Origin: Isurus oxyrinchus
Taxonomy: Eukaryota
Assembly: GCA_026770705.1 (NCBI GenBank)
Contig: JANJGN010000021.1
Coordinates: 42,966,001 to 43,030,000 of the forward strand
Direction: 5' to 3'
DNA length: 64,000 nt
The notes under the pieces are model-generated. The model was not told the DNA's origin and did not search any database. It worked only from the letters and a program-made list of their open reading frames with translations. Below are positions 7,352 to 64,000 of the stretch, piece by piece. The position numbers and the translations under genes are program-made. The stretch's first letter is position 1. Each line of letters begins with the position of its first letter.

Positions 7352-7809
7352 TGCCTGCACCTCGGCGGTGCTGGTCATTGCTGCCAGAATGTAGTGGGCA
7401 GGTGTCACAGAATTCTCTCATTGTCTCTGTGTTCCCTGAGCACCTTTAAGGAAGGGCTGGTCCCCATCTCTTCAGCATCTGTGCCACTGATGCTGTGCTC
7501 CTGAAGAGCTCAGGTGTTGAAAGTGTGCAAAGCATCAGATGCTTCTAAAGTTTTATGCCTGCATCTCTATTATATGACCCTGCTCATGGAGCGCAAGCGA
7601 GCTGCCCTCAGCCAGACAGAAGTCAGACATTCTCAGAGGCTACGTGAAGATTTATGGAGTATCCTCACTGCATGTCGTCATCATCCTCCTGCAGTTGAGT
7701 GACTATTAGGGCCTCTACTGTCTCCCCATGACAGGAGCATTCTCACAGAGGGTATTCGCACTGCCATAAGCCAGACAGGAGTCAAATGTTCACAGATGCA
7801 ACGTGAGGA

Positions 7810-9058
7810 TCTATGGGGTCGCCTCACTGCATGTTGCCATCATCCTCCACAAATCTAGCACCTGTGAGGGTTACCTGACTGCGTCTGCCTTGTCTAGCCA
7901 GTGCGAGGGCCTCATCCCTGCCAAAGTTATCTCCAAGGATCTCCTTAGCCTCATCCCCATCGGTGTCATCCTCATGGGAGGAGACGTGCAGCCCCTCCAT
8001 CTCTTCCTCAGCCAGCTCATCTTCTCATTTGAGCAGACACTGATGATGTGTGACACTCTATTTTGCAGGGCTCCACCAGACTGGCCCAAGTACTGGAACC
8101 TCATCTTCAGCATCCCGATGGTTTGCTCCACTGAAGTTGCAAGCTGCAGCATGAGTTTCATTATACCGTCACTCTGCTGCAGTCTGAGGCTGCTGCACGG
8201 GTGTCATCAGCCACGGCCTCTGCGGGTAGCCCTTGTCTCTGAGGAGCCATCCCTGCAGCTTGTGTGGACCCTGGAAGACTCCAGGGATCTACAGCATCTG
8301 AGGATGTAGGAGTCATGCACACCCTCTGCAAACCGTGCGCACACCTGCAGGATGTGTTTCTGGTGGTCGCACACCAGATGCACATTCAGCGAATGGAAGC
8401 CCCTTCGGTTGGTGAAGTCCACCATGTGTTGTGATGGAGACCTGAGCACCAGATGAGTGCAGTCAATCGCACCCTGCACCTGTGGGAATCCCAAGATCTG
8501 GGCGAATCCAATCGCTCTTGCATCCTGGCTGTCCTGGTCCCTGGTGAAAAGCACAAAGTTGTGTGCCCTCACAAAGATGGCATCCATGACCTCATGGATG
8601 CATTTGTGGGTGGAGGCTTGAGAGATCCCACAGAGGTCACCAGTGGAACCCTGAAAGGAACCACTGGCATAGAAATTAAGCCCCTGCTGTTACTTTCACA
8701 GCCACTGGCAGTGGATGCCCTGCATGCCCCAGTGGCGCCAATTCCTGCAGTAAATGGCAGATGTGAGCAACCAGTTTCCTAGACATTCACAGTCTTTGGA
8801 GACGCTGGTCATCTGCAGGAATGACAGGCGGCCTCTATAAACCCTGGGTGTCACTAGGCACAGACCTGCAATGGCTCGCTGTGGCTCTTGGGCGGAGTGT
8901 GTGGGAGCCCCAGCCAACCCTTTTTCCTGAAGTTGCTGCTCCTGCCTTTGCATAGCCAGGAGCCTCTGTCGCTCTCTCCTCCGTCTTCTTAGCACTCTGT
9001 AGGCCATCAGGCATAGAGTTAAGTCACCAGACACGATGATCCTGATGTGCTCCTGCAG
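7810..9058 (-). pseudogene. Harbinger DDE transposase (HARBI1-like), degenerate
   Basis: GFPQVQGAIDCTH, NRRGFHSLNVHLVCD, GVHDSYIL, VEQTIGMLKMRFQYL motifs spread over several frames. Confidence 0.9.
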
Positions 9059-11470
9059 GATGAAAGAGAGAGACACTTGGTTAGCATGGGTGTACTAAGA
9101 ACCTGTCCTGGTTAAGTGTGACGGCCCCTTAACGCTTCCTGGAGAGTGCTGGCAAGCACTTGGATGGCCAGAGATTAGTGCACTGCATGGCTGCCCTGTT
9201 AGCTTGAACCATGGTGGAGAGTTAACCAAACTGGGATGCTGACATTGCAAGGAGCTGTGAGTGCCTCCAGAAGTGACTGCTACATGGCCAGCAAGGAGAT
9301 TGTACAACGTGTGCAGTCTAACTGTTCTGCAGTCCACTAAAATGCTCATGAATTTGCAGTCTGTGCTGGGGCAGGGCTGGGAGGGGGGCAGCTCTGGAGA
9401 ACTTGGTGACACTTTGATGCCTCTGCATTGCTTGAGTGGGCAGATAGGCTAGGAGCCAACCCCAGTCATATCAATGTGGCTGCACCTGAACTGTCTCGGT
9501 CGCAGAGGAATGGTCACTTTCTACAGCTTTTTCCAATGTGTGGCCACTTCCCTCGCCCACCCTACCCCCTCCACCCCGAATGCTTATGTGCTACAATTCA
9601 ACGGCAGGGCTGCTCTTACCCCTCCCCTCGTCACCAGTTGCCTCAACAGCAAGGCTGCACTTGCCCCCGCTCACAAGTCACCTCAGAGGCAGGGCAGTAC
9701 TTGCTCCCTGCTCCCCCTCACCCTCAAAAGTCACCTCCGAGGCAAGGTGGCACTTAACCCCGACCCCCTGGTGTCCCTGAAGTTTACAAAGTAACAGGTG
9801 ACCCTGGCAAACTCTGCAGAACGTTGCTGTTCACTTACTTCCAGTTCACCCAAAGTGCAGGCCGCCAAGTGCACGTTGCTTTTGTGCTGTTGTGAAACAC
9901 ATCAGCGTGCTTTCCCGCTGACATGGACGGACGATCCAGCAGGGGTGCAGGAACCTGTAGGGATGGGCTGATGATGATATGCTGATGTATTAAATGAGGT
10001 TCCTGATGACAGGAAACGTGACCTGCTGTTGGCAGCCTGAGCGGACAATCGTGACCTGCCTTCCCACCATCGTGAAACCAATCATGCCATATTTTCTGCG
10101 CATGCCACCTATCATGCCTGCTGCCCTGTGGGCACGGAAAATTCCACCCTAGGTTTGAAATGCTGAATATGTTAACATGGTTGAAGTTTTAAAATGAGAG
10201 GTGTGAAGAACATTTGCATTTTTAGACAAACCCAAGTAGTGAATTTCAAAGAGATGGTAAAGTGTTACACCTAGCCAACAGAGGCTAAGCCAAACACTGT
10301 GTTTATTTTTCCCAAAGATTACTGATAATATGAGTGCTAGGAAAGATTTATATTATGGAAAAAATAAAGTTGCAAAGACATATTGGAACAATGGGATTTA
10401 CATTAAAAAGGGAGAAACCTGTATAAAGGAGATGAAGTTATGTGTAAGAAGAAGGCATTCTAAGGTCCAACAAGTGTGAAAAGTCTCCAACCTCTATGTA
10501 CCAAGCTGCTGTCTTCAGGAACTGAAGCTAAGAGAATTCATTTTAAATATTGTGTGCTTTGCCTGGGTCTGTTGAAATCTATGTTGTTTTACTGTTGCCT
10601 TGAAAGAGGTGTAACTGGAACCTAAATTAATTGGGGGATTTAGGAGTTATTATAGTAGTGATTTGTAGACCTATGTATTTATTATATTAATGAATGTTTA
10701 ATTTAGTTTTGTAAATTAAGCCTCTAAGACTTGGTGGTCTTATTACTACTGAATTCAAGGCATGCATCTCAAAATAAAGCTACAAATTGCAAAACAGTTG
10801 TGGCAGCTGTTTCAAGTTTCCCTCTGGGACTTGAGCAGCTCAGCATTTACCATCCACTGTTCCATAACATGGGTAAGTATATAACTGAACCCCAATCACT
10901 CATGTTGACCACCTCAACTCTCCCCTCAATTGCCCAACTCCCCGCAGACCTGACCTAACTCTCCCCCACCACCAACAACCTCAAACATCATGTCTCTCCC
11001 CAGACCCGACCTGACTAGTCTCTCCCACCCAACTGCCTCCCTGCTTACTGGACTACCTTCCCAATTTTCCCCGACACCCCTAACCTAACCTCACCACCTT
11101 ATCCACCTACCATCCTACCCAGCTACCATCATACCCCTTGCTCACTTACCTTACTCACGCTACCCCCTTACACACGTACTATCTCTCTGTAGCTTTTCAA
11201 AGAAACTTTGAGATATTTAAGCTCTTGCCAGAATACAGCATCAAATGCCATAAAAGGGGGGCATGGCTTCTGCGTGGAGTCTCTCCACTGCTCCCTTCAA
11301 GGTTCCCTGCAATGACTCAGTTCTGTAGGATCTTCCATCAGATGGTTGCCCAGAAAAATTGGAGGAAGGTAAGTGGGTATTATTTTGTCTGATTAAGGTC
11401 GGAAATAGGGATTCTGAGCCTAAATGGAAGATTTGGGCCTTTACGTTGATCAGATTTTGCTTTCAAATTT

Positions 11471-14400
11471 AGAGGCGATGATGCAGTGGTATTGTCACTG
11501 GACCAATAATATAGAGGCCCAGAGTAATGCTCTGGGGACCCAGGTTCGAATCCCGCGGCAGATGGTGGAATTTAAATTCAATAAAAATCTGGAATTAAAA
11601 GTCTAATGATGACCATGAAATAATTGTTGACTGTTGTGAAAGCCAATCTGGTTCACTGATGTCCTTTAGGTAATGAAACCTGACATCCTTAGCTGGTCTG
11701 GACTATATGTGACCCCAGACCTACAGCAATGTGTTTGACTCTTAATTGCTCTTTGAACAAACTGCTACAAAGTCACAGAAAAGGAATGAAACCAGACAGA
11801 CCACCCAGCATCGACCTAGGTACCAGAAGTGGCAATTGCAGCCCTGTCAACCCTGCAAAGTCCTCCTTACTAACATTTGGGGGCAAGTGCCAAAATTGGG
11901 AGAACTGTCTCATATCCTAGTCAAGCAACAGCCAGACATAGTCATCCTCACGGAATCATATCTTACAGTTAATGTCCCAGACACCACCATCACCATCCAT
12001 GGGTATGTCCTGTCCCATCTGCAGGACAGACCCAGCAGAGGTGGTGGCACGGTGGTGTACAGTCGAGAGGGAGTTGCACTGGGAGTCCTCAACATCAATT
12101 CTGGACCCCGTGAAGTCTCATGGCATCAGGTCAAACAGAGGCAAGGAAACCTCTTGCCGATTACCATGTACCACCCTCCCTCTGCTGATGAATCAGTGCA
12201 CCTCCATGTTGAACATTACTTGGAGAGAGCACTGAGGGTGGCAAGGATGCAGAATGTACTCAGGGTGGGGGACTTCAATGTCCATCACCAAGAGTGCCTC
12301 GGTGGCACCACAACTGGCCAAGCTGGCCAAGTCCTAAAGGACATAGCTGCTAGACTGGGTCTGCAGCAGGTGGTGAGGGAACAAGAGGGAAAAACATACT
12401 TGACCTCATCCTCACCAATCTGCCTGCCACAGATGCATCTGTCCATGACAGTATTGGTAGGAGTGACCATCGCACAGTCATTGAGAAGATGAAGTCCCAC
12501 CTTTACATTGAAGACATCGTCCATCATGTTGTGTGGCACTACCACCATGCTAAAGGGGCTAGATTTTGAACAGATCTGGCAACACAAGACTGGGCATCCA
12601 TGAGGCTCTGTGAGCCATCAGCAGCAGCAGAATTGTACTCGAACACAGCCTGTAAGCTCATGGCCCAGCATATCCCCCACTCTATCACCATCAAGCCAGT
12701 GGATCAACCCTGGATCAATGAAGCATGCAGGAGGGCATGCCAGGAGCAGCACCAGGCATACCTAAAAATGAGGTGTGAACCTAGTGAAGCTATAACACAG
12801 GACTACTATCATGCCAAACAACAGAAGCAGCAAGTGATAGACAGAGCTAAGTGATCCCACAGCCAACGGATCAGTTCTAAGCTCTGCAGTCCCTGCCACA
12901 TCCAGTCGTGAATGGTGGTGGACAATTAAACAACTCACTGGAGGAGGTGCCTCCACAAATATCCCCATCTGCAATGATGGAGGAGCCCAGCACAGCAGTG
13001 CAAAAGATAAGGCTGAAGCATTCACAACAATCTTCAGCCAGAAGTGCCAAGTGGATGATCCATTTCGGCCTCCTCCGGAGGTCCCCAGCATGACAGATGG
13101 CAGCCTTCAGCCAATTCGATTCACTTCACTTGAAATCAAAAAACAGCTGAAGGCACTGAATACTGCAAAGACTATGGGCCCTGACAATATTCCAGCAATG
13201 TACTGAAGACTTGTGTTCCAGAACTTGCTGCGCCCCTAGCCAAGCTGTTCCAGTACAGCTACAATACTGGCATCTACCAGGTTATGTGGAAAATTGTCCA
13301 GGTATGTCCTGTACACAAAAAGCAGGACAAATCCAAATCACCAATTACCGCCCCATCAGTTTACTCTGAATCATCAGTAAAGCAATGGAAGGGGTCTTCA
13401 ACAGTGCTATCATGCAGCACTTGCTTTGCAATAACCTTCTCACTGATGCCCAGTTGGGTTCCGCCAGAGCCACTCAGCTTCTTACCTCATTACAGCCTTG
13501 GTTCAAACATGGACAAAAGAGCTGAACTCCTGAGGTGAGGCAAGAGTGACTGCCCTTGACATCAAGGCTGCATTTGACCAAGTGTGGCATCAAGGAGCCC
13601 TAGCAAAACTGGAGTCAATGGGAATTGGGGGAAAACTCCCCGCTGGTTGGAGTCATTTCTAGCACAAAGGAAGATGGTTGTAGTTGTTGCAGGTCAGTCA
13701 TATCAGCTCCAGGGCATCATTGCCGGAGTTCCTCAGGGTAGTGTCCTGGGTCCAACCATCTTCAGCTACTTTATCAATGACCTTCCTTCCATCGTAAGGT
13801 CAGAAGTGGGGATGTTCGCCGATGATTGCACAATGTTCAGCACCATTTGCAACTCCTCAAATACTGAAGCAGTCCATGTCCAAATGCAACAAGACCTGGA
13901 CAATATCCAGGCTTGGACTGACAAGTGGCAAGTAACATTCACACCACACAAGTGTCAGGCAATGACCATCTCCAACAAGCAAGAATCCAACCATCACTCC
14001 TTGATATTCAATGGCATTACCATAACTGAATCCCCCACTATCAACATCCTGGGTGTTACCATTGACCAGAAACTGAACTATATGGACTAGCCATATAAAT
14101 ACTGTGGCTACAAGAGCAGGTCAGAGGCTAGGAATTGTGCGATGAGTAACTCAACTCCTGACTCCCCAAAGCCTGTCCACCATCTACAAGGCACAAGTCA
14201 GGAGTGTGATGGAATACTCCCCACTTGTCTGGTTGAGTGCAGCTCCCACAACACTAAAAAAGCTGGGCACTGTCCAGAACAAAGCAGTCCACTTGATTGG
14301 CACCACATCCACAAACATTCAGTCCCCCCACCTCCGACTCACAGTAGCAACAGTATGTACCATCCACAAGGTGCACTGCAGTAATTCACCATTGTTCCTT

Positions 14401-14733
14401 AGACAGCACCTTCCAAACCCACGACCACTGGCACCTAGAAGGACAAGGGAAGGCAGCAGATAGATGGGAACATCACCATCTGGAGGTTCCACTCCAAGTC
14501 ACTCACCTTCCTGACTTGGAAATATATCACTGTTCCTTCACTGTTGCTGGGTAAAAATTGTGGAACTCGCTCCTTAACAGCACTGTGGGTGTACCAACAC
14601 CTCATGGCCTGCAGCGGTTCAAGAAGGGAGCTCACCACCACCTTCTCAAGGGCAACCAGGCATGGGCAATAAATGCTGGTCCAGCCAGCGAATCCCACAT
14701 CCCATGAATGAATTAAAAAAAAACAAAAACAAA
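11471..14733 (+). mobile_element. Near full-length CR1/L2-group LINE (APE + RT, no ORF1) with a tRNA-like 5' head, degenerate
   Basis: APE motifs NIWG, PDIVILTES, GGGTVVY, GDFNVHH, SDH; RT motifs GVPQGSVLGP and FADD; 3' tail AATAAA...ATGAATGAATT followed by an A-rich run. Exact clade not determined. Confidence 0.9.
11479..11553 (+). promoter_or_regulatory. tRNA-type internal Pol III promoter (A and B boxes) at the LINE 5' end
   Basis: A-box-like TGATGCAGTGGT (11479-11490) and perfect B box GGTTCGAATCC (11543-11553). Confidence 0.75.
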
Positions 14734-17280: not shown

Positions 17281-18005
17281 GGCCTGAGTCTTACTCTCAT
17301 CGGGTGCACACGATCGCGGGCCCCAAAGTGGACGCGAAATGTGCTTCTGGTCACGATCGGCCTCCAAATGCAATTTCACGCTGCCAGTGTGAAATGTACA
17401 CTGGAAAAGCCCCAGTGCCATCAGGGAAGGCAGAAAGAGGGCGGGTGCTAACAAAAATGAGGGTGTGGGTGGACACTTATAGCGAGTTCCCTGAAGGCAG
17501 ACAACTGCTGCGGAGCTGCAGACCTGTACATATTAAATGACAGGAAAAAAATACAGCAAGCACATTCAAGTACCTGACAACAGAACTCAATAAATATCAG
17601 TCCCCAGATATCATTTTTTAATTATATTTCTCCCCAGACATTTCATCCCGCCCTGGTCAAGGTTTCAGTGAAAGTGTGAAGGCTGTCAACTGTCCACTGC
17701 CACCTTTTGAAGGGCAACTAGGCATGCGCAATAAATACTGACCCAGCCAGCAAAGCCCACATCCCATGAATGAATAAGAAAAAAGTGAATGGGCCACATA
17801 AAATCGATTACAGTTGCCTCCTTAATGGGCTTAATTGCCCACTTGATTGTCGGCAGACCTGCCTTCAACTGCCGCATGTACCTGCCGAGCGAAATATTAT
17901 GTGAGTGCGTGATGACGTCGGGATGCACACCCAATGTCTTCTCGCCTGATTTCACGTGTTGTCTGGTCGGGCACATGCCCGCACAGCCAACATAAAATTC
18001 TGGCC
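17281..18005. mobile_element. Harbinger-type MITE
   Basis: Ends GGCCTGAGTCTT / AAAATTCTGGCC, TSD ATG; homologous to the 322-1009 family. Confidence 0.8.
17686..17785 (+). mobile_element. 5'-truncated 3' tail of the LINE family at 11471-14733, inserted in the MITE
   Basis: GCCACCTTTTGAAGGGCAACTAGGCATGCGCAATAAATACTG...CCCACATCCCATGAATGAATAAGAAAAAA matches 14632-14723. Confidence 0.85.
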
Positions 18006-18239: not shown

Positions 18240-18535
18240 TAATGACACAATGGTTTACGTCCAGCCTTAGAGTCAGGGGCTCTGGGTTTGAGACCCACCC
18301 AAGGACTTGGTGACCAAGGAAGGTGTGTTCATAATACGACCAAATAGGTTGAATACCAATTGGCAAATTCTTCCAACACATGCCAATAGCAGGCAGTAGG
18401 AGCAGGAGAGATTTCTGGTCAGCCATATGATGGAAAGAACATTGGATTGTCTACCATTACTATCCATAGCTTCAGACTACAATATGCATTCATGTTGTTA
18501 CATCAACTTGGATTCCCTGAGTGAACTGTAATACA
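18240..18535 (+). mobile_element. tRNA-derived SINE-like repeat
   Basis: B-box-like GGGTTTGAGACC; body similar to 48445-48730 (AAGGAAGGTGTGTTCA, ACACATGCCAAT.GCAGGCAGTA, ATGGAAAGAACATTGGA). Confidence 0.65.
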
Positions 18536-18574
18536 TGCAATCCCCTCATTAGTCAGTGTTAGCTGTTGCTCATT

Positions 18575-28145: not shown

Positions 28146-30484
28146 TTACATTGCTCATTTTTTCATTATGCAAACTAGTTTCTAGATTATTAATCCAGAG
28201 AATTAGACTGTTGATCGATGGAGGCAAGTTCAAATCTCACCAGGGTAGTCTGAGATAATAGCTCCCATGAAACACAATGGAGTATTTTATTACATTAAAG
28301 GTGTCATATAAATGCAAGTTGCTGTTGTTATTGCATGCAAGTGGGCCAACTGAGATTGGGAAATCATCATTCAGAAGATTTTAGGCAAATACACTCATTC
28401 TCCCACGCAATAGTGTTGTATAATAGGGCTTCAATGTTTCCAATATATCACTTCTAATACTAATTTTCTCCAGTTACAGCATTTTCTATTAATTCTGCGA
28501 TTGGTCCGGTAGCCAATTAAAGACTTTTAATAGCTCAAGATTATAATTGCACCTATCACAGGGACTGGCTATATAAAGACTAGGAACTTTCTGCATACAT
28601 TCAGTCACAATAATAAAAACAATGCTGACGTAAACAATCACTCTTTATATACCTCCTTTCTGTGATACGTGCAATTATACTCTCAGGAGCATTTCAACGT
28701 TCCTTTAATTGGCTACTTGGACTATCACTACTTTAGAATGGAATTAACAGAAAGTGCTGTAAGCTGGAGAAAATTAGCAACCCACCTTCCCCAAAACAAC
28801 TATTAATACTTCCTTCCCACATAGAACGCCCACGGCTCATTGCATTTTCTTTTTAAAAGAGGATATTGTTTAAAGACACAAACTCCCCACATAAAACCTC
28901 ATTGTAAAATAGATAAGAAAAATGAGAAAGGAGTGACTTCAAATTGTGCTTGATTTTGAAATTATGATGAGCAATCTCTTTCCCTTCAAATGGGATAAAT
29001 TGTTCCTTACAATGGTTAGTGTCAATGAAACCATCATGGGGGCTGAAGTGATATCAGTGATGCATTGATCTGTTGACCTGATACCGGAGGGTGAGTGATT
29101 TGGACAGATACACACTGATGGCTGTGAGGTTTGGTGACTTGAATAAAATAAATGGATTACTTCTCTAACAATTTCTACATCTATCTTTCTACTCATCTGA
29201 GTCCCTATCCTCTCTCTGGTTTTCAACTAGCAAAATGTCCTCATATCTTTAACCTCACACTTCAGAATTCCATTGCCATTGCCGATAGATATACACCTGA
29301 TCTGAATCTAATGAATGGCAATGGGCATTGTAAACTACAGCTTTTGCATTTCTGAAAACATTGTGAATGGTAATTACTGTATCAGAACTGAATGCAATGG
29401 CTTAATGTTACAAGAGGTTTTTTTAAGCATTACAATGGGTTAGATCTCAGTTTAGGTTTGCATTTTTTGCTGTTAATATTAACCATTCTCTACTTTGGGA
29501 GGGATTATAACTAAAACAATGGTGGATTATGAATACTTGGCTGCTCCGATACACCTTTGATAACCGATTGAAGAACAGCATTGGCACAGTTCTGGCAAAT
29601 GATTGTGTAAACATTTTCTCTTAATGCTGGCAATGCCGCTTGGCATGGGAAAAGCTAAATTTGTGAACAAATAAAGGGACACAAAAAATATTTGTACAAT
29701 TTGGCTCAGTCTCCATATATTTCCAGTATGATGGTGACTGCGTTTTGTTCAGGAAATTATTCTTTTTGAAGGCTGTAATATCTTGGAGTTCAGTGCTATA
29801 ATAATGAACAGCTAATGAATTGTATTATTTCAGTGAGACACAGTGATCAGAATCACAAACCTGGCAGTCTGTCGGTAGAATGGAAATGATGGCTGGTGCA
29901 ATATTGAAGCCATGTTCCTCATATTTTTATTAAATGCTAAAAACATTATTTACAAAGCTGTCTAAATATACCTCATGGATAAACATCATTATTGCACCAT
30001 CTTTTCCATCTAGTTGGATTCTTTAGTCCTGAAATACAAGATTTTAAAATTGTAGATCAAACAACAGCTTGAAACAATTTTAAAATATTTCAAATCATCC
30101 CTGGTTTTGAAGTTATATTCTTTCCTTCTTTGTGATCTTGCTTTACATGTGGCATTGATTAACTAAGATGGCAGGGAGGTAACTTAATAGAAGGGCTATT
30201 TCTGCCCTTGTGTCACGTGCTGTAGAATGATAAGGTGATTTCCCCTAAGTTTTGCTTTCATTCAGGTCACAAATCATCTCCCTCCATTTGGTTACACATC
30301 TGCAACAGGTTTTGAACAAAATTGAGAACTACTGTGAGGGAGCAAGGACACAAATCCATCCATCCACTATTCTACCACTCCAATACAAATTATTAGCAGA
30401 CCAGAATAGTATATCACTGGTGCACACCCTCCATGTCAATCTTGGCTCATTGTAAATACTCTCATCTCTGCATCAAAATATTCA

Positions 30485-35089: not shown

Positions 35090-35785
35090 AGAGTCATAGA
35101 GTTATATAGCACAGCAACAGATCCTTTGACCCATCGTGTCTGTGCTGGCCATCAAGCAGCTATCTGTTCTAATCCCATTTTCCGGCACTTGGCTCATAGC
35201 CCTGAATGCTATGGCATTTTAAGTGCTCATCTAAACACTTAAATGTTGTGAGGGTTCCTGCCTCTACCACCCACTTAGGTGGTGTGTTCCAGATTCCAAC
35301 CACCCCCCGGGTGAAAAAAAATGTCCTCAAATCCCTCTAAACCTCCTGCCCATAACCTTAAATCTATGCCCCCTGGTTATTGACATTGCTGCTAAGGGGA
35401 AACATTACTTCCTAGCTACTTTATCTATGCCCCTCATAATTTTGTATACCTCTATCAGGTCCCCTCCCAGCCTCCTCTGCTTGAAGGAAAGCAACCCTAG
35501 CTTATCCAGTCTCTCTTCACAGCTGAAATGCTCCAGCTCAGGCAACACCCTCTCTAGTGCAAACACATCCTTCCTATAGTCTGGTGACCAGAACTGCACA
35601 CAGTACTCCAGCTGTGGCCTAACTAGTGTTTTAAACAACTTCAACATAACCTCCCTGCTCTTATATTCTATGCCTTGGCTAATAAAGGCAAATATCCCAT
35701 ATGCCTTCTTAAAAATCTTATCTACCTGTGCTGCTACCTTCAGGGATCTATGGACATGTACACCAAGGTCCCTCTGATCCTCTGT
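35090..35785 (-). mobile_element. CR1 (HER1-like) LINE 3' fragment
   Basis: LFKTLVRPQLEYCVQFWSP...RRLGGDLIEVYKI on the minus strand plus 3' UTR. Confidence 0.9.
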
Positions 35786-37545
35786 ACTTTCCTTCTGCCA
35801 TAGGGAAAATGCTAGAATCTATTATTAAGGAGGGTAAAAGTGGGGCACTTAGAAAATCTTAATGCAATCAGGCAAGTCAATATGGTTTTGTCAATATTTG
35901 ATTAATTTATTAGAGTACTTGAGGAAGTAACAAGCAATGTAGATAAAGGAGAAACTGTAGATGTTGTGTACTTGGACTTCCAAAAGGCATTTGACAAGGT
36001 GCTGCATCAAATCCACTACACAAAATAAGAGCTTATGGTGTAGGGGTAACATATGATCATGGATAGAGGATTGGTCAGCTAGCAGGAAACTAAGTGTAGG
36101 GATAAATGGATCATTTTTGGGTTGGCAAGATGTAACCAGTGGAGTGCCACAGTGCTGGGACCTCAATTATTTACAGTCTATATCAATAACTTGGATGAAA
36201 GGACCAAATGTATGGTTGCTAAATTTACTGATGACACAAAGATAGGTAGCAACGTAAGTTGTTGAGAAGACATAATGTGCTGTAATTTCGACTAGCGTCA
36301 GAAAGTGCTGGTGCACAGGAAATAGAAGAAATAATACCTACTTACCTAGTCTTGAAAATTACGTTGCCACTTCCATTCGCTGGAGCTGCTTGGGGTCCTC
36401 CTCGCAGGCCCCAGTGAAGTGTAGCACCAATGGATTCAAGGAGGCCACGCCTCGTTTTTACAGCACTTGCTGCTGTAAAGCAGGTAAGTTTAAAGGGCCA
36501 AGGAAATTGACAGACCAAGGAGAAGGCAAGTGCCTAAGGTAAGTGGATAGAATTGGTGGGTGGGATGTCTGGGGGCAGTCCAGGGGGCCGAAAGGGGGTG
36601 GGTCAGAGGCCTGGGGGGGTCAAAAGTCTACGGGGGCGGTCCAAGGTACCGGGGGGTGGGGTCCGTGGTACCGGAAGGTGGGGTACAAGGTAGGGGTGGG
36701 TCCGAGACATGGTGGGGGTCCGAGGTACAGGGGTGGTGCTTGAGGATGGGGTCAGATGTTGGTTGGAGGTCTGGGGCATCGTGGTGGGGGGAGGGCTGAG
36801 GTCCGGGGGCTGGGGTCGAATGTCCGATGGGGGTGTGAGATCTGGGGGGTTCCAGGGTCAGGAAGGTCATGAGAGGGATCCTTGGTTTGGAGGTATGGCT
36901 GGGTGGTAGTCAGAGGTCTGGAAGGTTTGGAGATCCTTGGGGGTGCCCAAGGAAATTGAGAGATATTGCAGAACCCAGCAGTACAGAGTGACCTGGGTGT
37001 CCTGGTCCATGAATTGCAAAAAAATGTTAGTATGTGGGTACAGGAAGTGATTTGGAAGGCAAATGGGATGTGTTGTTTATTGCAAGGGGCATGGAATATA
37101 ATAGGAGGGAGATTTTGCTACAGTTGTACAAGGGCACTGCTGTGTCCACATCTGGCGAAAAGTTTTGGTCTCCTTGTTTAAGAAACAATGTAATTGCATT
37201 AAAAGCATTGCAGAGAATATTCACTTTACTGATTCCTAGGATGAAGGGAGTGTCTTATGAGGAAAAGTTGGACAGGTTGGGCCTTTATCCATTGGAGTTC
37301 AGAAGAATGAGCGGTGATCTTATTGAAACATATGAGAGGACTTGACAAGCTGGATGCTGAAAGTAGGTTTCCCCTTGTGGGAGCGACTAGAGCTAGGGTG
37401 AACAGTTTAAAAAGAGGTCTCCCATTTAAAATGGAGATAAGGAGATTTTTTTCTCTCAGAGGGCTGTTAGTCTGGTGAATTCTCTTCCTCAAAGAGCAGT
37501 AGAGGCGGGGTCATTGAATATTTTTAAGGCCAAGTTAGATAGATT

Positions 37546-37960
37546 TTCTTTTCCCACCTATTTCCATTATTTTTAAATATTTTAAAATCTTTTATGCTCT
37601 CCCCACCCCCATTAGAGCTATACCTTGAGTGCCCTACCATCCAATCTTAATTAGCACATTCGTTTAGATAATATCACCAACTTTTAACTTTAACACCTAT
37701 GTGTTCTATTGTACCATTGTTGTTGACATCTTTTGATGATCTGCTTCTATCACTGCTTGTTTGTCCACACAACCACCTCTCTCTCTCTCTATCTCTCCGC
37801 CCCCCCCACACACACCTTAAACCAGCTTATATTTCAACTTTTTCTTGGACTCGAACTCAAGTTCTGTCGAAGGGTCATGAGGACTCGAAACGTCAACTCT
37901 TTTCTTCTCCGCCGATGCTGCCAGACCTGCTGAGTTTTTCCAGGTAATTCTGTTTTTGTT
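37546..37960 (+). mobile_element. Young Penelope-like element 3' fragment (pseudo-LTR)
   Basis: 11-bp TSD TTAGATAGATT (37535-37545, 37961-37971); homologous to the 3' UTR downstream of the GIY-YIG ORF at 46981-47286. Confidence 0.85.
37860..37898 (+). ncRNA. Minimal hammerhead ribozyme motif, variant core
   Basis: AGTT-CTGTCGA-A-GGGTC-atgag-GACTC-GAAA-CGTC-AACT: stem I, stem II, GAAA and GUC site; U at the normally invariant A6. Activity untested. Confidence 0.6.
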
Positions 37961-38138: not shown

Positions 38139-38357
38139 ACAAAAACAGAATTACCTGGAAAAACTCAGTAGGTCTGGCAGCATCGGCGGAGGAGAAAAGA
38201 GTTGACGTTTCGAGTCCTCATGACTGTCGAAGGGTCATGAGGACTCGAAACGTCAACTCTTTTCTCCTCCGCCGATGCTGCCAGACCTACTGAGTTTTTC
38301 CAGGTAATTCTGTTTTTGTTTTAGATTTCCAGCATCCGCAGTTTTCTTTGTTTTCAA
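38139..38357. mobile_element. Palindromic Penelope pseudo-LTR insertion
   Basis: Perfect inverted arms 38139-38224 and 38234-38319; TSD CTATATCTGCT (38128-38138, 38358-38368). Confidence 0.9.
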
Positions 38358-48444: not shown

Positions 48445-48730
48445 TGGACGTCTTGTGGTGCAATGGGTAACTTCCCTGCCTCTGAGCCAGAAGCTCTGGG
48501 TTTGACTCTCACCTCAAGGAAGGTGTGTTCAAAAAACAGGCAAACAAGTTGAGTATAAACCTGCAAATCCTCTGACACATGCCAATGGCAGGCAGTAAGG
48601 GTGGGAGAACTTCCATGGAAAGAACATTGGAGCTTCTAACTTCCCTATTCATAGCTCTGGACTACAGCATGCATGTAAAAGTGCATGTTGCCACAGCAAC
48701 TCGGAACTCTCTGAGTCAAATGTAACACAT
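48445..48730 (+). mobile_element. tRNA-derived SINE-like repeat
   Basis: A-box-like TGGTGCAATGG and B-box-like GGTTTGACTC; homologous to 18240-18535. Confidence 0.7.
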
Positions 48731-52239: not shown

Positions 52240-53572
52240 AATGTATAGATGATTTCAATTTTTGAGTGCATCAGGGATTGTTTCTTAGATCAATAGGTTG
52301 TAGAACCTACCTGGGAGCAAGCTATTTTAGGTCTAGTAATGTGTGATGAGGTAGGATTAATAAACGATATCGAAGTTAAGGATCCCCTATTGGATAGCGA
52401 TCACAACATGGTAGAATTTCAAATTTAGTTTGAGGGCAAGCAACTCAGGTCTCAAATCAGTGTCCTCAACTGTATTGAGGGTTATGCACTATTTAGAATT
52501 GAGGATTGGTTAACACACAGAAGACAGAGAGTTGGGATTAATGGGTCTTTTTCGAGTTGGAAAGACGTGACTAGCGGAGTGCCACAAGGACCTCAATTAT
52601 TTACTATCTATATTAATGATGTGGAGGAGGGAGCAGAGTGTAATATATCCAAGTTTGCTGATGATACAAAAATAGGTAGGAGGGCATGTTACGATGAGGA
52701 CTTAAGGAATCTGCAAAGGGATATAGATAGGTTGAGTAAGTGGGCGAAAACTTGGAGATGGAGTTTAATGTAGGAAAGTGTGAGGTCATGCACTTTGGCA
52801 GGAAGCATCAAAAGGCAAACTATTATTTAAATGGAGAGGGACTCCAAAAAAGTGCAGTACAGAGGGATCTGGGTGTTCTTGTGCATGAAACACAAAAAGT
52901 TAGCATGCAGGTGCAGCAAGAAATTAAGAAGGCAAATGGAATTTTGGCCTGTATTGTTCAGGGGTTGGAGTTTAAAAATAGGGAAGTCTTGTTACAACTG
53001 TACAGGGTGTTGGTGAGGCTGCACCTGGAGTACTGTGTACAGTTTTGGTCTCTGTATTTAAGAAAGGATATACTGCCATTGGAGGCAGTTCAAAATAGAT
53101 TCACTTGGCTGATTCCTGGGATGAAGGCATTGACTTATCAAGAAGCAGGTTAGGCCTTTAGTTATTAAAGTTTAGAAGAATGAGGGGTGATCTTATTGAA
53201 ATGTATAAGATTCTGAGGGGGCTTGACAGGGTAGATGTTGAGAAGATGTTTCCACTAGTGGGGGAATCTCGATCTAGGAGACATAGTTACAGAATAAGGG
53301 AACATTCATTTAAAACTGAGATGCAGAGGAATTTCTTCTCTCAAAGTGAATGTCTGGAATTCTCTACCCCAGAGAGTTGTGGAGGCTGGATCACTGAAAG
53401 TATTTAAAGAGGAAGTAGATATATTTTTGAAATATTGGAGAGTTGAGAGCTGTGAGGAGTTGGCACGAAAGGAGTTGAGGTCTCAGGCAGATTAGCCATG
53501 ATATTGAATGGTGGGGCAGGCTTGAGGGGCCGAATGGCCTACTGCTGCTCCTATTTCTTATGTTCTTATTTT
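52240..53572 (+). mobile_element. CR1 LINE fragment with internal deletion
   Basis: APE end (DSDHNMVEF) joined to RT SGVPQG, KFADDTK, LEYCVQFWS and a 3' tail. Confidence 0.9.
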
Positions 53573-56417: not shown

Positions 56418-59400
56418 GGGGAAAACTGTCTGTACCCACTGGCGTCGGGTGAGTTTGGTGGTGTGAGCAGACAATATGGCAAGAAGGCCAAAAATTGGTT
56501 TCACGATGTTGTGAAAGCAGTTTGCGATTGTCTGCTCTACCCACAGATGGCAGGCCACGTATCCCGCCATTGGACATCAGGAGCCTCATTGTAATATATT
56601 TCCATTATTTCCATTTCATTATAAACATAGCCCATTGGAATCATTCCCCACCCCCGCCCCCCCACCCTGCTGGATCGTCCACCCGATGCGTTTCATACAT
56701 ATAATAGGTGTGCACTTGGTGGGCTGCACTTAGCGGGGAACTGGAGGTAAGTACAGAGTAACATTGCGGAGCACTCGCCCAGGTCGCCTGGTGCACTTCA
56801 GGGTTGAAGCGCATTCAGAGGAGGCGGCGGCAAGGGCTGCCCTGCAGTTGACGTGACTTGGGGGGATGGGGCAAGGGCTGCCCTGCAGTTGAAGGTACCG
56901 CACAAGCACATGCAAGAGTTGGATAACGAGGGAAGCGGCTACACATTAGGCGCAGAGTTTGCCCTCGGCGTGCAGGATTAGCAGTGATGGGCAGGTGCAG
57001 TCAGGAAGCTGACCGCTGTCCACGATTGGCAGCACTGCGCGATTTTACACGGGCGAGCCAATTAAGAGCCACCCAGTCTGATACGCGAACGGTGGAACTG
57101 AGCCCTGCCTGTGGGGCCGGGGCGGGGAGTGTGAGCAGCCTAGCGCGAACTTCATGCATGCGTGCGAGAGAGCACAGAACAATCTCCCTGAGGCACTGAG
57201 CTGCCTCGGAGAGATGAAGAATATTTTGAACAAATTATTGATCATCGGAAAAATTTAATGAAACATGTCCCCTCATTCCCCTCGTGTGACTCTCTCACAT
57301 GAGCAGGGACGTGTTTTTAATTAAAAAATGCAGTTTTTATTTTATTTATGTTTGCTTTTGGAAACCTCAACCCATACGTGGATGAGGTTTCAAAAAAATG
57401 CAAAGGCTGCTTGGTCTTTTTGCCTGCCCACCAACTATTAGGTTGGATGGGCAGTGAAAATTTAAACTCAATTGATAACTTAATGGCCTTAACAGGCCTT
57501 TTAATTGTTGGTGGGGCGATGCTGACTCCGTTGCGCACCTGCCGACCGAACTACCGTGCGACTGCACATTGACCTCAGCACGCTCGGCCAACATCATTGC
57601 GTGTCATTTCACACTCAATCTGGTCGGGCACACGCCCACCCCACTGAGCTAAAAATTCTGGCCTAGGAAAACCTTGTATAAAGTGACCATTCTTCTGCAA
57701 CGAAGACAATTCAGGCACAGCCAGATTGATATGATTGGAGTCAGGCCTCTAGCTTCTCCACCCACTCAAGCAACGCAGAGGCATCAAATTGACACCGAGT
57801 GCTCCAGAGCTTTTTACCCCTTGAGCACAGACTGCAAACTAATGAGCATTTTACTGGACTGCAGAACAGTTGGACAACTGGGCACTTGTACAATCTCCTT
57901 GCTAAAGCTGACCATAGAGAAGTCACTGGTGAGGCGCACACAGCCCTTTGCAATGTCATCATCCCAGTTTGGACCAGCCTTCTTGATAGTTCAAGCTAAC
58001 AGTGCAGCCTTACAGTGCAGGTTAGGAGAATGTCTGTGCCTGAACTGAGAGCACAGCATGCAGTCCAATGGGCAAAGCTGCTGCTAATTGGTCCAGTGGA
58101 ATGGGCGGAGGATGGTGGGGTTTTGGGCAGCCACGCAATGCACTGATCTCTGGCCATCCAGGTGGTGGGCAGCACCCCGTGGGATGTGTTAAGGGGCCTT
58201 CAGACTCAACCAACACAGGTCCTTAGTACACCCATGCTAACCCATGCATCTCTCTCTTTCATCCTGCAAGAGGAGTACATCAGGATTGTGGAGCCTGGCG
58301 ACCTAACAGAATGCCTCGTGGCTTACAGACAGTGAAGAAGACTGAGAAGAGAGCAACTGAGGCACCTGGCTGCACAGAGGCAGGAGAAACACCCTCTGGA
58401 AGAATGGATGACTGGGACTCCCGCACATGCCACCAAAGAGCCACAGCGAGCCATCGTTAGTCAGTGCCTAGCTATACCCAGGGTCTATAATGCCGTCTTT
58501 CATTCCTGCAGATGATCAAGAACCAGTGTCACCGAGACTGTGCATGTCTAGGGAACTGGTTGCTCACATCTGCCAACTGCTGCAGGATTTGGCACATGGG
58601 GAAATGGAGGGCATCCACTGCCAGTGGCCGTGAAAGTGATCACACCACTCAATTCTATGCTAGTGGCTCCTTTCAGGGCTCCACAGGTCCACAGGTGACC
58701 TCTGAGGGATCTCACAAGACTCCACTCACAAATACATCCATGAGGTCACGGATGCCAGCTTCGTGAAGGCACACAACTTTATGCATTTTGCTCGGGACCA
58801 CGACAGCCAGGATGCAAGAGCAATTGGATTTGTCAAGATCTCAGGTTTCCCACAGGTGCAGGGTGCGATCGACTGCACTCACATGGCGCTCAAATCTCCA
58901 TCACAACACGCAGTGAAATACACCAACTGCAAGGGAATCTATTCGCTGAATGTGCAGTTGTTGTGCGACCTCCACAAATGCATTCTGCAGGTCTGCGCAT
59001 GGTTTCCAGGGAGTGTGCCAGACTCCTACACCCTCAGTTGGTCTCAGAGCCCTGAAGTCTTCCAGGGTCCACAGAAGCTGCAGGGATGGCTCTTCAGGGA
59101 CAAGGGCTACCCGCAGAGGACGTGGCTGATGACACCCATGCGGCGGCCTCAGACTGCAGCAGAGTGATGCTATAATGAGGCTCATGCTGCAACTTGTAAC
59201 TTGGTGGAGCAGACCATCGGGATGCTGAAGATGAGGTTCCGGTACCTGGACTGGCCTGGTGGAGCCCTGCAGTGCAGTCCGCAGAGGGTATCACGCATCG
59301 TGATCATTTGCTGTGCCCTTTGCAACCTGGTGCTGCAACAGGGGTTGTAGCTGTCTAAGGAGGAGCTGGAGGAGCTGGAGGTGTCCCCTGATGAGGAGGA

Positions 59401-60205
59401 TGCGATGGGGATATGGGCGAGGAGGTCCTTGAAGGCCACGATGACGGGGATGAGGCCCTCGCACTGGCCAGACGAGGCAGTCATGCTTGGGAGGCCCTCA
59501 TAGCTCCTAGATTTGCGGAGGATGATGACGACATGCAGTGAGGAGGCACCATATATCCTCACATTACTTTTATGAACATTTGACCCCAGTCTGACTTTGG
59601 CAATGCACATAGCCTCTGTGATAATACTCCTGTCATGGGGATGCAGTGGAGGCCCAAATAGTCCATCGATTGCAGGAGGATGATGATAACATGCAGTGAG
59701 GACTTTTCATAGATCTTTGCATAGCCTCTGAGAATGTTTGACTCTTCTCTGGCCAAGGGCAGCTCATTTGCACTCTGTGATCAGGGCTACGTCATAAAGA
59801 TGTAGCCATGAAACTTTAAAAGCGCCTGATCCTTTGTCCAACTTCAGCATCTGACCCCTTCAGGAGCACAGCGTCACTGGTCACAGATGCTGAAGAGATG
59901 GGGGCCAGCCACACCTTAAAGGTGCTGAGAACACACAGAGAGAATGAGGATCAATGATCTCCTCCGTTCCCCCAGGGTAAGTGACTCATCTCATCACTCT
60001 CAACTCACACACTCACAAACCCATCACACATCCACAGGGCCCTCACTCACTGCCAGTTCAAGGGACATCACTGTTCACTCTCTTACACACAGACCTTCAT
60101 TGTCCCCATCCCATCCATGGGACCATTCACCATCCACACATGCCAGGCATACTTATCATCTGGCCTGGCAAGTGCCATGCTTACACTCTCTCCATCTCTA
60201 TTCAT
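56418..60205 (+). mobile_element. PIF/Harbinger element, same family as 5585-10149, opposite orientation, truncated and rearranged
   Basis: 56418-56700 matches the reverse complement of 9900-10149. Transposase 58270-59560: GFPQVQGAIDCTH, YSLNVQLLCD, FRDKGYP. Confidence 0.88.
56950..57663. mobile_element. Harbinger-type MITE inside the Harbinger element
   Basis: Ends GCGCAGAGTTTG / AAAATTCTGGCC, TSD TAG. Confidence 0.8.
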
Positions 60206-60865
60206 GGTGGTGAAAAAGGCATATGGGACACTTGCCTTTATCAATCGAGGCAGAGATTGCAAAAGTAGGGAGGTCATGTTGGAATTGTATAGAACCTTGG
60301 TGAAGCCACAGCTGGAGTACTGTGTGCAGTTCTGGTCGCCACATTATAGGAAGGATGTGATTGCATTGGAGGGGGTGCAGAGGAGATTCGCCAGGATGTT
60401 GCCTGGGATGAAACATTTAAGTTATGAAGAGAGGTTGGATAGACTTGGATTGTTTTCTTTGGAGCAGAGAAGACTGAGAGGCGACCTGATCGAGGTGTAC
60501 AAGATTATGAGGGGCATGGACAGGGTGGATAGGGAGTACCTGTTCCCCTTAGTTGAAGGGTCAGTCATAAGGGGGCATAAGTTCAAGGTGAGAGGCAGGA
60601 GGTTTAAGGGGGATGTGAAGAAAAACTTTTTTACCCAGAGGGTGGTGATGGTCTGGAGTGCACTGCCTGGGAGGGTGGTGGAGGCGGGTTGCCTCACATC
60701 CTTTAAAAAGTACCTGGATGAGCACTTGGCACAAATTAACATTCAAGGCTATGGGCCAAGTGCTGGTAAATGGGATTAGGTAGGTAGGTCAGGTGTTTCT
60801 CACGTGTCGGTGCAGACTCAATGTGCCGAAGGGCCTCTTCTGCACTGTGATTCTGTGATTCTGTG
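60206..60865 (+). mobile_element. Young CR1 LINE 3' fragment
   Basis: Open frame VVKKAYGTLAFI...LVKPQLEYCVQFWSPHYRKD...GYGPSAGKWD*; tail (CTGTGATT)n. Confidence 0.93.
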
Positions 60866-61975: not shown

Positions 61976-62071
61976 ACAGCAGTGCTGGGACACCACAGCT
62001 GGCCTCCGTTCACCTGGAATTGTCACATTGGGGAACCAGATAAACCAGGGTTGCTCAATGCTGCAACCTCA

Positions 62072-62740
62072 AACATATGTAGGAGCAGGAGTAGGCCACT
62101 CAGCCTCTTGAGCCTGCTCCGCCATTCATTGAGATCATGGCTGATCTGAATATAATCTCAACCCCATATTCCTGCCTACCCCTGATAACCTTTCCCCTCC
62201 TTGTTAATCAAGAATCTATCTAACTCTGCTTTAAGAATATTGAAAGACTGCTTCCATCGCATTTCAAGGATGAGAGTTCCAAAGACTCTGTGAGAGAAAA
62301 AAGCTCTCCTCATCTCTGTCTTAAATGAGTGACCCTTTATTTTTAAATACTGACCCCTAGTTCTATATTCTCCCACAAGAGGAAACATCCTCTCCACATC
62401 TGCCCGGTCAAGACCCCTCACAATCTTAAAGGTTTCAATTGAGTCACCTCGTACTCTTCTAAAATCCAATGGATACAAGCCTAACCTGTCCAGCCTTTCC
62501 TCATAAGACAACCCGCCCATTCCTGGTATTAGTCTAGTAAACCTTATGTGAACTGCTTCTAATGCATTTACATCCATCCTTAAATAAGGAGACCAGTATT
62601 GTACACAATACTTCAGATGTGGTCTCACCAGTGCCCTGTATAGCTGAATAACCTCCCTACTTTTGCAATCAATTCTCCTCACAATAAATGATAACATCCT
62701 ATTAGTTTTCCTAATTACCTGCTGTACCTGCATACTAACC
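62072..62740 (-). mobile_element. CR1 LINE 3' fragment
   Basis: ORF 62176-62733: LYRALVRPHLKYCVQYWSP. Confidence 0.9.
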
Positions 62741-63797: not shown

Positions 63798-64000
63798 TTT
63801 TTCTTTATTCTTTAGTGGAGTGTGTGCATCACTGGTAAGGCCAGCATTTGTTGCTCATCCCTAATTGCACTTGAACTGAGTGGTTTACTCACCCATTTCA
63901 GAGGGCAGATAAGAGTCAACTATATTGCTGTGGGGCTGGATTCACATGTAGGTCAGGACAGCAGATTTCCTTCCCTGAAGTTCATTAGTGAACCAGATGG
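63798..64000 (-). mobile_element. SINE sharing its body with the 5' end and its tail with the 3' end of the LINE at 11471-14733; runs off the window
   Basis: Reverse complement: CCATCTGGTTCACTAATG...ACAGCAATATAGTTGACTCTTATCTGCCCTCTGAA (matches 11645-11757), then TCAAGTGCAATTAGGGATGAGCAACAAATGCTGGCC...GAATAAAGAAAAA (matches 14646-14720). Confidence 0.85.

Follow-up and report, generated by a model that had tools for sequence, protein, structure and literature searches.

The window (the whole 64-kb stretch of DNA that was analysed) contains a decayed LINE and, at its very end, a part of a short element on the opposite strand that resembles the two ends of this LINE. The LINE measures 3251 nt and has lost a further 27 nt by deletion. 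Its APE endonuclease and reverse transcriptase (RT) lie in one open reading frame, which is broken by frameshifts and by five in-frame stops in the 914 codons examined. No ORF1 was found: the endonuclease starts ~400 nt from the 5' end, and the longest stop-free frame upstream of it has 75 aa and no Pfam match. An APE and an RT in one frame, no ORF1 and an A tail are described as the marks of Zenon (PMC13343379). The first 400 nt of the LINE also match, by eye, seven published Zenon consensuses. Based on this 5' match and on its structure, the LINE is assigned to the elasmobranch CR1-Zenon elements, and its host is presumably an elasmobranch. The coordinates of the features are collected in Table 1.

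Table 1. Features of the Zenon LINE and of the short element in the 64-kb window.
Feature	Position	Strand	Remarks
Full-length decayed elasmobranch Zenon LINE	11472..14722	+	single ORF, no ORF1, A tail
tRNA-like head	11472..11565	+	from sequence, motif scan and fold
A-box-like motif in head	11479-11489	+	
B box GGTTCGAATCC	11543-11553	+	perfect
5' body common to the short element	11566..11757	+	27-nt deletion after 11757
APE-type endonuclease	11872..12411	+	PF03372 E 3.5e-6, PF14529 E 3.4e-6 (Pfam)
Only sense-strand T4 run of the LINE	12564..12567	+	last T starts premature TGA
Reverse transcriptase, C-terminal part of domain	13635..14063	+	PF00078 E 1.2e-16
LINE 3' tail	14646..14722	+	A run from 14715
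5'-truncated Zenon tail without body	17700..17784	+	87% over 85 nt to 14638-14722
Short element 3' tail	63798..63874	-	last ORF codons, 3' UTR, A-rich end
Short element 5' part, Zenon 5' untranslated body	63874..64000	-	consensus ~176-312
'Linker', actually Zenon 5' sequence lost from the LINE copy of the window	63896-63874	-	22-23 nt

The window holds several other repeats. Five CR1 3' fragments that are 66-73% alike (35169-35818, 36978-37547, 52740-53562, 60213-60779, and 62070-62739) served as the control for counts of T runs. A 181-bp near-perfect palindrome (96%) at 38139-38319 consists of two head-to-head copies of a repeat end, presumably Penelope-like, that recurs at 37860, 42485, 46300, 47710, 54731, and 61890; an Rfam miRNA match to this palindrome stayed below the gathering score. 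Two opposed copies with a transposase reading, which we take to be Harbinger/PIF-like, lie at 7417-9534 and 57666-59948 and are 77-79% alike. A decayed pol fragment, presumably gypsy-like, occupies 1553-2539. A further repeat of SINE size has two copies (18248-18536 and 48461-48730, 67%) and no relation to the Zenon body. Finally, a 318-bp self-complementary stretch (66%) at 28460-28777 is possibly a decayed MITE.

The LINE begins with the only tRNA-like head in the window, which carries an A-box-like motif and a perfect B box and folds with an 8-bp hairpin. We take the layout of the head to resemble that of tRNAs with a long variable arm. In this decayed copy ARAGORN found no tRNA and Rfam none among 13 and 1 matches, and none of the 7 segments folded gave a z below -1.8. 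No target-site duplication of at least 6 nt was found framing the head and the LINE together.

Is the head a part of the LINE? The answer comes from Table S2 of PMC13343379, in which the first 400 characters of the 10 Zenon rows were compared by eye. Seven of the rows are from elasmobranchs and represent five species (great white, whale shark, catshark, dogfish with three rows, and stingray), with consensus lengths of 2886-3314 nt. Within these first 400 nt, all seven begin with the tRNA-like head, the body, and the linker. In other words, they start where the head of the window starts and continue into the sequence of 11758-11850. The linker follows the body directly in all seven rows, though one dogfish row has a shorter version. 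Three rows have a perfect B box and three a variant, and that of the stingray is degenerate. The head was seen in none of the three hagfish and coelacanth rows, where a head placed further in would escape the 400-nt view. The possibility raised by the first-pass annotation that head and body are never linked to APE-RT in other copies is contradicted, as the link exists in 7/7 elasmobranch consensuses. The same annotation had offered the short element as in-window support for placing the head in the LINE family. The placement itself is upheld by the linkage in these consensuses. The in-window argument is weak because the window does not include the head of the short element and linkage does not follow from a body in common.

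A tRNA-like head appears to be family-wide in elasmobranch Zenon and apparently has gone unremarked. The main text of PMC13343379 contains neither 'tRNA' nor 'promoter' and 'SINE' once, and the passages covered were not found to describe either the head or a short derivative. Titles and abstract openings, a scope that lies outside Repbase and Dfam, yielded no tRNA-headed elasmobranch Zenon or short derivative; either may be catalogued already. According to PMC13343379, vertebrate Zenon is reported only from elasmobranchs, coelacanth, and hagfish. Full-length copies number hundreds or thousands per genome, and Zenon makes up 0.7-6.8% of five elasmobranch genomes (Table S4 of the same paper).

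Further evidence of the linkage comes from homologous proteins. A search with the endonuclease retrieved 151 proteins, of which 29 have at least 55% identity to it. Two of these 29 also carry the translation of the body; their scores against the translated short element exceed those of all 200 shuffles. Both are gene predictions and perhaps spliced. One of them, P0023, reads body, linker, and then endonuclease (score 78 against 48 for the best of 200 shuffles), and its match to the short element extends through the linker (tblastn E 1e-8 over 63946-63875). The other, P0003, is weaker (47 against 41) and marginal given 29 tests. Four other predictions (P0001, P0047, P0073, and P0104) join parts of the Zenon endonuclease to host-like sequence that is unrelated; these fusions are probable annotation artefacts from unmasked Zenon.

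The short element lies on the minus strand at 63798-64000. The window stops at a point that corresponds to about position 176 of the family consensus, and both the 5' end and any head of the element fall outside it. The element is present in a single copy within the window, and its label as a SINE in the first-pass annotation is unconfirmed. Its visible 203 nt consist of Zenon 5' and 3' ends only. The 5' part (63998-63897) aligns with 11646-11757 of the LINE with 70.5% identity over 112 columns, including one 10-nt gap that reflects a private deletion in the short element (blastn E 1e-11), and a hand count gives 110/127 positions identical to CarCar_Zenon-1. The tail (63874-63798) aligns with 14646-14722 at 56/77 positions (E 3e-7) and also with the truncated tail at 17708-17784 (55/77). 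In a control with 300 dinucleotide shuffles per part, scored against the whole LINE, the 5' part reached 66 against a shuffle maximum of 28 and the tail 49 against 35, so that each part beat 300/300 shuffles. Both halves of the match to the LINE body and tail described in the first-pass annotation therefore hold. So does the gap of ~2.9 kb between them: the LINE stretch absent from the short element is 11758-14645, or 2888 nt. The A-rich end of the short element is in the same register as that of the LINE, and the sequence downstream of 63798 has no LINE likeness. The short element has its tail in common with its partner LINE, a feature expected of tRNA-derived SINEs (SINE2).

The ~25 nt between the two parts had been described as a linker. 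This sequence is not foreign. By eye, it agrees with the family consensus (CarCar_Zenon-1) at 18/23 positions, the last 10 being identical, and its translation is joined to the endonuclease in P0023. It has no match in the LINE copy of the window, in which the 27 nt missing between 11757 and 11758 include the linker, or in the sequence preceding the tail. A remnant of an old tail was considered as a source and ruled out, as 850 of 2700 LINE positions score equally well. The linker runs straight into the tail, and one T is common to both parts (1-nt microhomology). Judged by sequence, the visible element is consensus ~176-312 fused directly to the last 77 nt of the LINE, and the full element is predicted to be ~390 nt long. 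Since the linker is Zenon 5' sequence, an origin by deletion is simpler than the first-pass annotation assumed. Identity of the element with a Meta domain was considered and dropped: no likeness to the BivaMeta and BivaMD rows in the supplement of PMC4824008 was seen by eye. Motif searches gave no match in literature text, none in 8 bivalve supplement files, and one chance match in 2 hagfish supplement files (PMC7245038).

How did the short element arise? The first-pass annotation offered two answers, namely that the SINE arose from the LINE by deletion or that the LINE captured the head of its own SINE. This interpretation is supported, with deletion the likelier of the two. On balance, we think it probable that the short element is an internal-deletion derivative of Zenon that spread as a Pol III-transcribed SINE copied by the Zenon protein. 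An ancestral Zenon would have acquired a tRNA-like head, with an older SINE as the probable source, before the shark/ray split, because the Zenons of hagfish, coelacanth, and butterflies lack the head. One internal deletion of ~2.9 kb would then have removed the ORF and left an element of ~390 nt, whose head is expected ~175 nt beyond the window end. Pol III transcription is predicted from the presumably inherited tRNA-like head. In other words, the derivative would have been a ready-made SINE because its parent carries the A and B boxes. It would have been amplified in trans, with the Zenon protein likely binding the shared tail. The same A and B boxes may also drive Pol III transcription of the parent LINE itself. 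Since the head needs a source and the outgroup Zenons are without it, the likeliest history combines an early capture of a Pol III element with a later deletion.

The evidence on the order of events is conflicting. No base of the short element falls outside the Zenon 5' end or the Zenon tail. This is automatic under deletion. If instead the SINE came first, and a headless Zenon captured the head and body of an existing Zenon-tailed SINE in place of its own 5' end, a template switch must have hit the body/tail border precisely, to within one or two bases, and the linker has no likeness to the pre-tail sequence that could have guided it. Internal-deletion derivatives of Zenon are also reported to have arisen several times in Lepidoptera (PMC6740152). 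On the other hand, just 1 nt of microhomology at the junction counts against deletion. The headless outgroup Zenons imply that a Pol III element of some kind supplied the head, as a SINE-first order would have it. This order also draws on the report that the lepidopteran derivative, Persaeus, has no Pol III promoter (PMC6740152) and on the suggestion that Ingi-3_AC took up Ceph-SINE sequence (PMC5786205). Furthermore, judged by private sites, divergence is greater in the tail than in the 5' part: the short element has 16 tail differences of its own, whereas the two LINE tails have 4 and 5 (binomial p 0.012 and 0.027). In the 5' part, by contrast, it lies as close to the consensus as the LINE copy does (17/127 and 16/114 differences by hand count). 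An amplified lineage evolving under its own master would explain such an excess, but so would, equally well, an older tail combined with a more recent 5' exchange, which would favour capture. The identity of the short element to the LINE copy does not differ significantly between the 5' part (79/102) and the tail (56/77; Fisher p 0.49), so that divergence gives no direction. Taken together, we regard an origin of the SINE before the headed LINE as unlikely.

A different question is whether the derivative ever spread. A single Zenon copy may have lost its interior during or after reverse transcription and never been amplified. Only one copy is present in the 64 kb, and rare deletions are expected in a family with hundreds or thousands of full-length copies per genome. 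By hand count, moreover, the short element and the LINE copy are about equally distant from the consensus in the shared part, both at ~13-14% (17/127 and 16/114, respectively). Second copies of the junction were sought in collections outside animal genomic DNA: bacterial and archaeal genomes gave 0 matches and the Atlas none, the RT search 0 among 141 candidate stretches, and the protein searches only a member of the query itself (1/5 and 1/10 candidates). The endonuclease search gave 1/1227, an endonuclease piece within an unrelated prediction. These results agree with a one-off event but carry little weight, given the collections covered. The excess of private sites in the tail (16, compared with 4 and 5 in the LINE tails) argues against it, as does, with little weight, a common shark repeat that we take to have the same layout. 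We therefore consider an unamplified single copy quite improbable. Far more improbable is that an independent SINE landed just upstream of the LINE, with the short element being a usual kind of SINE that shares its tail with a LINE. The window has one head only, and a target-site duplication around head and LINE was not seen, as such a reading would have it. However, 7/7 consensuses from five species join the head to the LINE at the same place, which contradicts an independent insertion unless a frequent chimera entered the consensuses of all five species. P0023 and P0003 likewise link the body to the endonuclease.

Sense-strand stretches of at least four T (T4 runs) terminate Pol III transcription, and the LINE is poor in them. 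Its sense strand (11472-14705) has one T4 run in 3234 nt and its antisense strand 15, while the five CR1 fragments of the same window have 15 in 3280 nt (binomial p 5e-4). CR1 is richer in T (27% against 22%), so that composition-aware tests matter, and these are weaker (p 0.01-0.11). A base shuffle of the LINE predicts 5.8 runs, with 4/200 shuffles as low as observed, and a dinucleotide shuffle 3.5 (22/200). Synonymous codon permutation with stops kept predicts 3.5 (96/1000), and codons weighted by four-fold third positions 5.9 (12/1000). Runs of three T number 10 against 17.2 expected (7/1000 as low). The only T4 run of the LINE likely arose after insertion because it runs into a premature TGA, and 12 homologous proteins align through this stop. 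Phenylalanine makes up 20/914 residues (2.2%); each of the 16 long homologues has more (2.3-5.6%). The short element has no run of three or more T in 196 nt, for which 0.1-0.5 T4 runs would be expected, and so lacks an internal Pol III terminator there. By eye, a T4 run occurs within the first 400 nt in none of the seven elasmobranch rows and in all three headless rows.

Several points count against transcription of the LINE by Pol III. The sense strands of LINEs are often T-poor, and the two Harbinger-like pieces of the window likewise have just 1 T4 run per 0.9-1.0 kb. No tRNA model matches the head of the LINE. An uncapped LINE RNA would also need another route to translation. It is a tentative proposal, and a rather doubtful one, that elasmobranch Zenon is an autonomous LINE driven by a captured Pol III promoter in its tRNA-like head, is transcribed over its whole length, has been purged of T runs in its 3.2-kb sense strand, is translated without a cap, and breeds SINEs by one deletion.

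If the deletion reading is true, it reverses the published model of SINE birth, in which a small-RNA head is added to a deleted LINE (PMC5786205). The LINE would have been headed first, and one deletion would have turned it into a SINE. The donor would be an element of the CR1 group, beyond the RTE and Vingi elements that were the only donors of SINE bodies in the survey of PMC5786205. If the parent is transcribed by Pol III, it would be odd among elements that encode protein and would break the rule of thumb by which Pol II serves LINEs and Pol III serves SINEs, and the question would arise of how an uncapped RNA of 3.2 kb is translated. Elasmobranch Zenon would then be a living intermediate between LINE and SINE that makes up 0.7-6.8% of elasmobranch genomes, and part of this Zenon annotation (Table S4 of PMC13343379) may be the short element.

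The known systems resemble the elements of the window to different degrees. The elasmobranch Zenon consensuses (CarCar_Zenon-1 and six others) have the same 5' 400 nt, length, single ORF without ORF1, and A tail as the LINE. Shark SINEs are described as tail-sharing only: HE1, SacSINE1, and the CmiSINEs pair with HER1, a CR1-4_DR-like LINE, or L2-2_CM (PMC5499810, PMC3747384). By description, the same holds for ZenoSINE and the Zenon-tailed SINEs of bivalves; Zenon-tailed SINEs occur in butterflies and bivalves (PMC6685494, PMC11481361). The first-pass annotation had held that SINE/LINE partners usually share only the 3' tail. Sharing more is less exceptional than it stated, as a bipartite class has been described (PMC5786205, PMC6740152). 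The Persaeus SIDE of Lepidoptera likewise consists of Zenon 5' and 3' ends, and its 3' part includes the end of the ORF (PMC6740152). Persaeus, however, is reported to lack tRNA likeness and a Pol III promoter, to vary in its central region, and to have 5-bp direct repeats where the break occurred, whereas the short element has a parent with A and B boxes, no central region, and 1-nt microhomology. The bipartite SINEs Bov-tA, CoeSINE4, and SINE2_Gav, derived from RTE or Vingi elements, combine a tRNA head with LINE 5' and 3' parts just as the short element is predicted to do (PMC5786205). In these SINEs the head was added to a headless deleted LINE, whereas here the autonomous LINE is already headed. 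A headed LINE is not without precedent, since RTE-1_DAn and related elements in the RTE clade are autonomous LINEs with tRNA-like sequence (PMC5786205).
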